Below, piece by piece: positions 24,194 through 54,680 of a stretch of 64,000 nucleotides of DNA. The notes beneath the pieces were generated by a model, which made no database searches, was not told where the DNA came from, and worked only from the letters and a program-made list of their open reading frames with translations. The stretch's first letter is position 1, and the number at the start of each line of letters is the position of its first letter. The DNA is taken from assembly GCA_951406725.2 (NCBI GenBank), contig OX597831.1:31000001-31064000 (forward strand). The letters run 5' to 3'. The DNA is from Octopus vulgaris (taxonomy: Eukaryota). A program made the translations under genes and the position numbers.

Positions 24194-24312
24194 TTTTGGT
24201 GATCCGTGACCTCATTAACAGTCCGGCCTTTTTAATCAACTTCAGTTCGTCATTACGGAGATATACTTGCATAGCAAGTGACTTCATCTGAGATCGTGTG
24301 CTGGAACGAAAA

Positions 24313-24565
24313 CAATTGCAGCGTGGAAGGTGTTTATAAGCCATTTAAGAAACACACAAAACCGTTAGATTCACTTCAACATTTAAATTTAATTTGTCAA
24401 AATATTTTCGTCGCTTTGAGACCGCGACCTGTTCACTGACAAAGCTTCGTGCTGCGTCTGAAAGCGACGAAAATATTTTGACAAATTAAATTTAAATGTT
24501 GAAGTGAATCTAACGGTTTTGTGTGTTTCTTAAATGACTTATAAACACCTTCCACGATGCAATTG
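24313..24565. repeat. Fold-back element: 105-bp near-perfect inverted arms with a 43-nt spacer
   Basis: Arms 24313-24417 and 24461-24565; I count about 2 mismatches by eye. Confidence 0.95.
24393..24443 (-). ncRNA. Type I hammerhead-like ribozyme, G3-C8 variant
   Basis: Minus strand: TTTGTCA-GTGAACA-G-GTCGC-GGTCTCAAA-GCGAC-GAAA-ATAT-TT-TGACAAA, with a 7-bp stem I, 5-bp stem II and palindromic minimal stem III. Confidence 0.7.
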
Positions 24566-24837
24566 AGTTCGTCATTGTCATCTAGTAAAGATTTATGGAT
24601 GTAGCTCCTCGTGTCGGTCGTGGTGGGGAGGGAGGAAGGCTGGAGAGATCAGTGTGTGTGTGTGTGTGTACTCATGCGTATGTGCGTGTGTGTATGTGTG
24701 TGCGCGTGTGTAAGTGTGCGCGTATGAGGGTGCGCATTAGAGGTCATATTCGTTGGATTGAGTCGGTTCAGTATGTTCGTGTAAATATTCGTAAATGAGT
24801 GAATGTATGTATGTCTGTTTGTGCGTACATACATGTA

Positions 24838-26409: not shown

Positions 26410-27010
26410 GTATGCTACCATGTTGATCTTTTGCATCGACCACTGTACTCTGTCATTACAATCCAACCTCTGTTCATTTAGTCCATCAACCAAGCTACTA
26501 GAAGTCTCCCCAATGTATGCCGTAATCAGGTTCCTATAATCACCCTTAATGCATTTTATATGGTAGACTACATTCCAAGTCTTACAGTTAATTCCAGGAT
26601 TAAAACTACATACAATGCAGTTCCTTTAGGTATACGTAGCCTTGTCTAAGGGATATCTCTTACATAACTATGATTCGATGAACCTCCCTGATTTCTCTGC
26701 GATTTTAATGTTGAGTTTAGCATCCTTCAGAGCCGTCCTAGACCTGCGAGCTAACTCTTCATAGCCTCTACAAATCTTGAAAGTTATCCGTGTGTTACCA
26801 TGTGTTTATTCTTTTTGCTATTTGCTTTATCACAAATTCTCTAAAGTTTATTATATTTACCCTGGTACTTTGGGTGGGTTCGATTGCATTCTTATTTATG
26901 ATATCATCTAAATTCTTCCTAACACCCCTGAACCAACTGATAAAAGGCTCAATCGATATACGCTGTCCGTCCTTTTATTTTAAACTGTTAGGGTATGATC
27001 GGAGGGTGAT
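26410..27010 (-). pseudogene. Penelope-like element GIY-YIG remnant (Cys-linker, Neptune-like)
   Basis: Minus strand translates CIVCSFNPGINCKTWNVVYHIKCIKG...TAYIGETSSSL, with stops upstream. Confidence 0.75.
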
Positions 27011-54012: not shown

Positions 54013-54289
54013 TATTAAGTTTCTGATGCTGTGGGTATATATGAAAGGGACGGGTATGGATTGGTTTAGTCCAAACAAACCAACACCCATTTACGGGTAG
54101 GGATAGAATTAATAACGGAGGAGTTAGCAGGGTATCTACCTTGCATGGGTCGAGAAGGACCCGAGTTCGCCAAGATATGCTCTGATAGGTATTTTTCTCC
54201 TACGTGTTAGATCTAGAAAAAGACCCACTCCACCTCACTATCAACAAAAATACCATGATATATCATTTCAGTCCTGAAAATCTGTTCCA

Positions 54290-54680
54290 CATGTTTATCA
54301 TCGGCAAAGTCTACATCAAAAGATGGATGGATGCAGTAAAATTACGTCGGCAGCTCTTATAACTTTGCTGTTGAGATCGTATTTACGGTTGCACATATTT
54401 TATTCTATAGAAAATACAGAATGTGAATATCTAGTTTTCCATTTCCCTCTAGGTCTGTCAGAAGATATTCATTCTCGGCAAGTTAATGGAATGTGGACTG
54501 GAGAGAATAATGTCGGAACCGTTTGACAGGAAATGTTTAATCTAAGATATAAAGAGATTGGTAGGACCTGTGGGTGATATATTTCACTTGGACGTTCCAC
54601 ATACCAGATATGGTCGAAAGCTTTCTTGGTGTCAAAGACATAAAAACAACATTGCTCTCTGCAGAAATTGTCAACGAGGA
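54290..54680 (-). pseudogene. LINE reverse transcriptase remnant
   Basis: FDTKKAFDHIW (compare DxxKAFDxVxH) and DFADD. Confidence 0.55.

Follow-up and report, generated by a model that had tools for sequence, protein, structure and literature searches.

The window analysed here, a 64,000-nucleotide stretch of the Octopus vulgaris genome (contig OX597831.1, positions 31,000,001 to 31,064,000), carries a hammerhead motif in which the 3-8 pair of the core is inverted, and this raises the question of whether the swap reflects selection on self-cleavage and, if so, whether that selection acts on this copy or on the family from which it was copied. A sequence-only reading had taken the two core changes as an argument for selection on catalysis and against decay. 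We found the motif to sit within a 311-bp insertion (24255-24565) flanked by two identical 11-bp target copies, with the following features (positions are those of the window):

24393-24443, minus strand: minimal type I hammerhead motif with a G3-C8 core, identified by sequence, fold, descriptor search with shuffles, and comparison with relatives.
24255-24460, minus strand: 3' pLTR arm of a Penelope-like element (PLE) family, referred to here as family A, with 97-100% matches across the genome.
24456-24565, plus strand: inverted, 5'-truncated second arm which begins in loop II and ends at the 'short' 3' end.
24252-24344, minus strand: first 31 codons of the element ORF, by translation, starting 56 nt after position 17 of the hammerhead.
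24244-24254, no strand assigned: left 11-bp copy of the target-site duplication, the final ATT being common to the element end.
24566-24576, no strand assigned: right 11-bp copy of the target-site duplication, identical to the left.

All parts of the motif are read from the minus strand. A 7-bp stem I (5' strand 24443-24437, 3' strand 24399-24393) encloses the core G3 U4 G5 A6 A7 C8 A9 (24436-24430), an additional unpaired G (24429) between A9 and stem II, a 5-bp stem II (24428-24424 / 24414-24410) with a 9-nt loop, G12 A13 A14 A15.1 (24409-24406), a helix III of 2 bp closed by a UA loop, and U16.2 U16.1 U17 (24402-24400). By standard hammerhead numbering the cut would fall between 24400 and 24399. 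The motif has a three-way junction with stems I and II and a short stem III around the core, and GAAA, U16.1, H17 and G10.1-C11.1 are all present; the literal CUGANGA core is absent from it and GUGAACA is found instead, in which the 3-8 Watson-Crick pair is retained in swapped form, and we file the motif as a hammerhead core variant and not as a consensus member. Stem I, the GUGAACA core, stem II, GAAA and the UUU triplet stand as they had first been read. The fold is also complete as claimed, although that description had omitted the unpaired G and a 117-nt inverted repeat, and while the palindrome assigned to stem III is present, only the inner six of its 10 letters can form helix III.

The minimum free energy structure of the isolated 51-mer contains stems I and II (-13.8 kcal/mol, z -2.5), and 2/200 shuffles reach as good a fold energy. 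A minimal-hammerhead descriptor permitting any Watson-Crick 3-8 pair, run on the window and 60 shuffles, returned exactly one site in the window (24393-24443), none in any of the 60 shuffles, and no second hammerhead in the left flank. Rfam gave no hammerhead among the best 150 of 163 matches, nor among the 15/15 of a second search, with only microsatellite and hairpin noise matched at the window; this silence is uninformative because no hammerhead was matched either at 5/5 loci with canonical-core minimal relatives. We note that a frequent family variant at 24397 (stem I), at 15-31% of the depth in four public runs, converts a U-A pair to U·G and is structure-neutral, and that no variant of at least 3% was listed at the core positions in 4/4 of these runs, where the depth drops and one run is possibly the source. 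Public runs from four organisms contain the stretch; small shares in two insect metatranscriptomes were left out of the evidence.

The arm that carries the hammerhead is 5'-truncated near an intron-like acceptor and terminates at the 'long' 3' end, and in longer copies the same stretch lies after the RT-EN ORF and before the ORF start; the second arm is without the 5' half of the hammerhead. The ORF start region corresponds to the PLE 'tail' region and extends into the full ORF in two other copies (L289 and L292), and the N-terminus shares 35% identity (E 4e-34) with a further family in the same genome, family B. The inverted repeat (24306-24422 / 24456-24572, 117 nt, 96%) has the hammerhead in one arm and the 33-nt loop. 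The 206-nt arm alone is predicted to pair with a probability of ~0.8 in stem I and ~0.5 in stem II, whereas RNA which includes the inverted arm is predicted to form a single long hairpin (-180 kcal/mol) in which the hammerhead pair probabilities are 0.0, which argues that this copy is unlikely to function as a ribozyme. It is a dead fragment, truncated and without promoter or ORF body. In a predicted dimer, the intermolecular pairing is via stems I and II and not helix III. Elsewhere in the window, other Penelope-like families have left two decayed fragments on the minus strand: a GIY-YIG region with stops at 26470-26757, which is 44% alike to both family A and family B, and part of an RT at 54087-54393.

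The 2.8 Gb genome was searched with a pattern of the 5' half of the motif in which positions 3, 7 and 8 were left free; this matched 6,147 times, whereas the reversed pattern, used as a control, matched 0 times. The typical family A copy is ~200 bp, has one of two end points and continues into (TA)n; both 3' ends lie within the first codons, matching the tail explained for PAc, the anole element discussed below. An inverted arm was found in 25/30 loci sampled in genome order, and the motif is identical in copies without one. Arm pairs combine one long and one short end in 39/55 cases (a set that counts the window twice and includes three split hits). Within a single insertion, the arms nearly always end at different 3' ends and sometimes differ at subfamily-diagnostic sites, namely loop II type and position 8 (L309, L322, L170, L178, L319 and window 24456-24465), and such differences fit copying by a dimeric protein, primed from both strands of the target, with two separate RNAs or two pLTR units as templates.

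One longer copy (L163) has a 1,025-codon frame with YVDD (recognised by eye), a CxxxCxxC linker and a GIY-YIG domain above the Pfam cut-off (PF01541); L163 itself has no Pfam RT match, and its homologues P0082 and P0112 carry PF00078. The hammerhead is found ~1 kb downstream of this frame in longer copies, and in L292 the same pLTR runs on into the ORF, which starts 56 nt after position 17, so that the pLTR with its hammerhead is present on both sides of the ORF. Family A shows 5' truncation, inverted arms, an optional tail and target duplication, as well as the (TA)n targeting and CX2-5CxxC linker that are features of the Neptune clade. These features mark it as an EN+ Penelope-like element whose linker and targets are of the Neptune type, its RT and GIY-YIG ORF being known from family copies outside the window; we refer to its placement as 'Neptune-like', by linker and targets, and Nematis shares the linker. 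The window is a single head-to-head insertion and not the head-to-tail tandem of non-coding units, each with a hammerhead, which characterises non-LTR retrozymes.

Several arrangements of the repeat were noted in the course of this search. Sequences resembling a branch point and an acceptor, as a retained spliceosomal intron would have, lie immediately upstream in 133 exact matches, in which no spliced joint was found, and 37 of the first 100 of these 133 copies listed are on contig C16 (58.8 Mb, ~2% of the genome). The G3-C8 repeat forms a tandem array with a period of ~2.18 kb at C2:206.158-206.186 Mb and another, retrozyme-like, with a period of ~170-190 bp at L304 on C28. One inverted insertion has been multiplied again inside a larger repeat that carries it as a passenger (L033, L040-L042, L047, L051-L054 and L056-L062), and has the same junction and flanks in 14/30 loci, also occurring as inverted pairs 2.7 kb apart. 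A tandem array on C2 and close pairs on C1 were considered as full-length elements and rejected, as they are larger duplications or a passenger copy. Three older family A copies (L176, L264 and L302) have C at core position 4 and are possibly an old sublineage.

The inverted pair is carried by the great majority of these copies. G3-C8 was found in 1,041/1,149 matches with the window-type loop, where 37 differ at position 3 (A 22, U 11, C 4), 74 at position 8 (G 33, U 26, A 15) and three at both positions, and in 1,793/1,862 matches with the young-type loop; these loop-class patterns demand exact flanks and old copies are therefore under-counted. The share across family A copies is 91-96%, and the pair, which had been asked about as a possibly fixed state, is nearly so. 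Arms picked without regard to the core had G3-C8 in 75/102 and G3·G8 in 17/102, in a set that is rich in C16 copies and has a double count of one locus or more. Of the family matches with C3, 18/18 retain C8, so that none of them has C3-G8. The G3-C8 state thus belongs to the family as a whole; it probably arose once and was passed on from copy to copy. Copy number says nothing on selection because copies inherit one state, and we rejected it as evidence for this reason and since 14/30 sampled loci are one re-amplified passenger copy. The proposal of selection on catalysis is not supported in the form in which it was argued: a single change in the family has been multiplied into thousands of copies and was not selected at this locus, and what the window contains is a truncated and inverted piece in which the predicted pairing probability of the hammerhead helices is ~0 once the inverted arm is part of the RNA. 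The two main lineages of family A have pLTRs that are ~91% alike, a similarity too great for the unchanged core to be a sign of ongoing selection.

Evidence of the direction of change comes from two comparators found via protein homology with the motif disregarded. Family B (55% at the amino acid level to family A) and metagenome contig L181 (41%; the metagenome scan gave two loci, with flank sufficient to reveal the motif in one) both have C3-G8 downstream of the ORF. G3-C8 is derived because these protein-found relatives carry C3-G8 at the same place, and the earlier proposal that the two core changes are the 3-8 pair is borne out. A single origin of G3-C8 probably lies on the stem of family A, which forms a single clade against the C3-G8 relatives (99/96 in a first tree, which has partial rows with unrelated flank and was used solely for the family-level split, and 100/100 in a further tree, from which 11/57 loci were left out where the fetched flank was without the motif). 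All 25/25 G3-C8 motifs with the sister-type G15.2 bear family A loops, in a search restricted to this stem II, and other G3-C8 families may exist. A canonical-core pattern with a related stem II gave 1,603 additional matches, with endonuclease remnants upstream in 4/30 of those examined.

Between family A and its relatives, 130 nt downstream align at shuffle level (45-56%), U4 G5 A6, GAAA and U16.1 are invariant, and 9/15 pairs have been altered on both sides. In a nine-row alignment, 83.6% of cells are paired compared with 73.0% when shuffled, with the two G-C rows representing one event; as 6/9 rows came from a pattern fixing the core and stem II, and rows are related, these pair counts lean towards structure and the weight lies with family B and L181. 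These comparisons suggest that the two core changes are a compensatory pair and that purifying selection maintained the fold in the lineage from which family A arose. We note that the youngest family B subfamily (L187 and L192) has intact frames of ~1,310 codons, C at core position 9 and U17, and that older family B copies have A9 and C17.

Independent variation at positions 3 and 8, which had been named as evidence against the proposal, was found in part, as position 8 varies by itself. G8 occurs in 213 matches (in the first 100 listed, position 3 is G in 97 and C in none), and C8 to G is the most frequent core change in both loop classes counted and is above controls. G3·G8 is also seen in 8/44 endonuclease-bearing rows. 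One sublineage has 46 G3·G8 and 250 G3-C8 matches, with 38/46 of the former on C16, mostly at 0.6-10.7 Mb and with independent flanks, and six of its endonuclease-bearing copies fall in a clade of 11. The 3' flanks vary among the G8 arms examined and these are therefore separate insertions from G3·G8 templates; such templates have retrotransposed, and the broken pair therefore did not block mobilisation. The C16 excess may reflect local hopping or a chromosome with special retention. Three accounts of G3·G8 were rejected: DNA duplication of the C16 cluster, as the flanks differ; one simple clade, as there are several haplotypes and loop types; and a mutation hot spot (26 young-loop G8 rows, 7 control C-to-G changes at an ACA site whose denominator is uncounted, and 2 G3-to-C).

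It should be noted that G3·G8 can be read in either direction. Reversion is favoured because most deep family A rows have C8 and the age test is flat (departure of 3.9% for 28 G3·G8 copies and 2.9% for 14 G3-C8 copies, p = 0.39), and a surviving intermediate is favoured because the sole amplified core variant is the ancestral letter and is found on older haplotypes. It is possible, though we think it doubtful, that family A preserves the full path, with C3-G8 in the sister families, a surviving mobile G3·G8 intermediate, and a catalytically restored G3-C8 taking over the family.

The pLTR minimal hammerheads of metazoan Penelope-like elements (Cervera and De la Pena 2014, PMC4209133) resemble the family A motif in their pLTR location, type I topology and G10.1-C11.1; they too have one more nucleotide between 9 and 10.1 and a very short, palindromic helix III, occur as solo copies by the thousand and form close opposite-strand pairs, and they are described as having low activity as dimers. 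Among the 56 motifs in Fig. S3 of that paper, 53 have C3, three U3 and none G3, and U3-A8 is the sole core covariant given there, in contrast to G3-C8 in family A, where stem I is also longer (7 bp). Natural covariation at 3-8 is likewise known from U3-A8 hammerheads (Perreault et al. 2011, PMC3088659), but U3-A8 retains the pyrimidine-purine order whereas G3-C8 inverts it, placing a pyrimidine at the general-acid position. EN+ Neptune elements (Craig et al. 2021, PMC8557442) share with family A the order of RT, CX2-5CxxC linker and C-terminal GIY-YIG, the inverted 5'-truncated arms, tail and (TA)n targets, and the linker is shared by Nematis.

The closest experimental system is PAc, a Poseidon PLE of Anolis carolinensis (Frangieh et al. 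2024, PMC11167929), in which the hammerhead also adjoins the ORF start, two 3' ends lie inside the first part of the ORF (the tail), ATT is found at the target, and priming occurs on both strands. PAc has a natural C3-G8 and an ORF that begins inside the hammerhead, whereas in family A the ORF begins 56 nt beyond position 17 and the protein has the CX2-5CxxC linker of Neptune and Nematis elements. The core found in family A is that of the PAc C3G/G8C laboratory mutant: C3G, equivalent to the family A G3·G8 state, abolishes cleavage in PAc and C3G/G8C partly restores it; cleavage requires protein, PAc with a mutated hammerhead still inserts normally in vitro, and none of the RNA-seq reads had its end at the cut site. 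G3-C8 is recorded as a partial laboratory rescue in PMC11167929, PMC8495972 and PMC3884650, and the claim that double swaps restore activity agrees with publication but overstates the effect, which is partial only (PMC11167929, PMC8495972).

Natural 3-8 covariation (U3-A8), PLE minimal hammerheads and laboratory rescue by C3G/G8C are already in print. No natural G3-C8 hammerhead was found in the literature searched, which was without most subscription papers, figures and the Terminon paper; the O. vulgaris repeat annotation, in the parts consulted, does not mention hammerheads (PMC13282606), and the sections seen of four further sources have no bearing on the 3-8 swap (PMC6155905, PMC10085705, PMC7229834 and bioRxiv 10.64898/2026.07.22.740005). 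What appears to be new, judged from sequence, is a natural and abundant G3-C8 core in a known kind of element, in which cleavage at the family level is plausible.

We consider it probable that the family A ancestor swapped C3-G8 for G3-C8 and that intact elements carry what is likely a weak self-cleaving RNA, assisted by protein or as a dimer, which is selected and yet dispensable per insertion, with the window copy predicted to be inactive. Cleavage after U17, which precedes the start codon by 56 nt, would trim transcripts that are tandem or result from read-through, with assistance perhaps from the element protein, as in PAc, or from a second copy; cleavage, helper and purpose are proposed here because of PAc and the low activity of dimers noted by Cervera and De la Pena. 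The hammerhead would be useful over the long run and not required at each insertion, and the tolerance of C9 in the young subfamily of family B counts against strict need. To form the window copy, target-primed reverse transcription would have begun at two internal sites and so produced a pair of cDNAs joined head to head. A less probable alternative, to which we still give appreciable weight, is that the G3-C8 motif no longer cuts usefully and that the fold is kept as a protein binding or folding element, or is a relic that has scarcely decayed. This would agree with the repeated copying of mispaired G3·G8 templates, with PAc insertion without cleavage and the success of Naiad PLEs without canonical hammerheads (PMC11167929, PMC8557442), and with the U17 and additional G in the motif and the C9 tolerated in family B; however, a relic would hardly be expected to change just those two letters of the core that pair with each other and to leave everything else intact as its flanks reach saturation, and the youngest lineage is 96% G3-C8.

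The stronger form of the original proposal, that this locus itself is an active ribozyme under selection, draws on the folding of the 51-mer by itself and of the arm alone, but the copy is truncated, bears a target duplication and has neither promoter nor ORF body, its core is merely the family state, and the hairpin with the inverted arm displaces the hammerhead pairs, making this very improbable. Half of the motif lies within the palindrome arm and Rfam is without a match, as might be expected of a chance look-alike created by the inverted repeat, but the same motif occurs in copies without an inverted arm, relatives have canonical hammerheads at this place and none of the shuffles has one, and we regard this last explanation as refuted, with next to no probability left to it.

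The kind of system is unchanged by this finding, as PLE minimal hammerheads and laboratory rescue of the swap have both been published. With a natural G3-C8, the covariation known from nature would comprise an inverted pair as well as U3-A8, and it follows that CUGANGA descriptors overlook whole families of thousands of copies. The question which bears on this family is the purpose of the hammerhead in Penelope-like elements. With C3-G8, G3·G8 and G3-C8 in one genome, the rate of cleavage could be compared with amplification success using natural sequences, and if the path through a surviving intermediate is true, then the octopus would hold a natural three-state test of what the hammerhead does for these elements.
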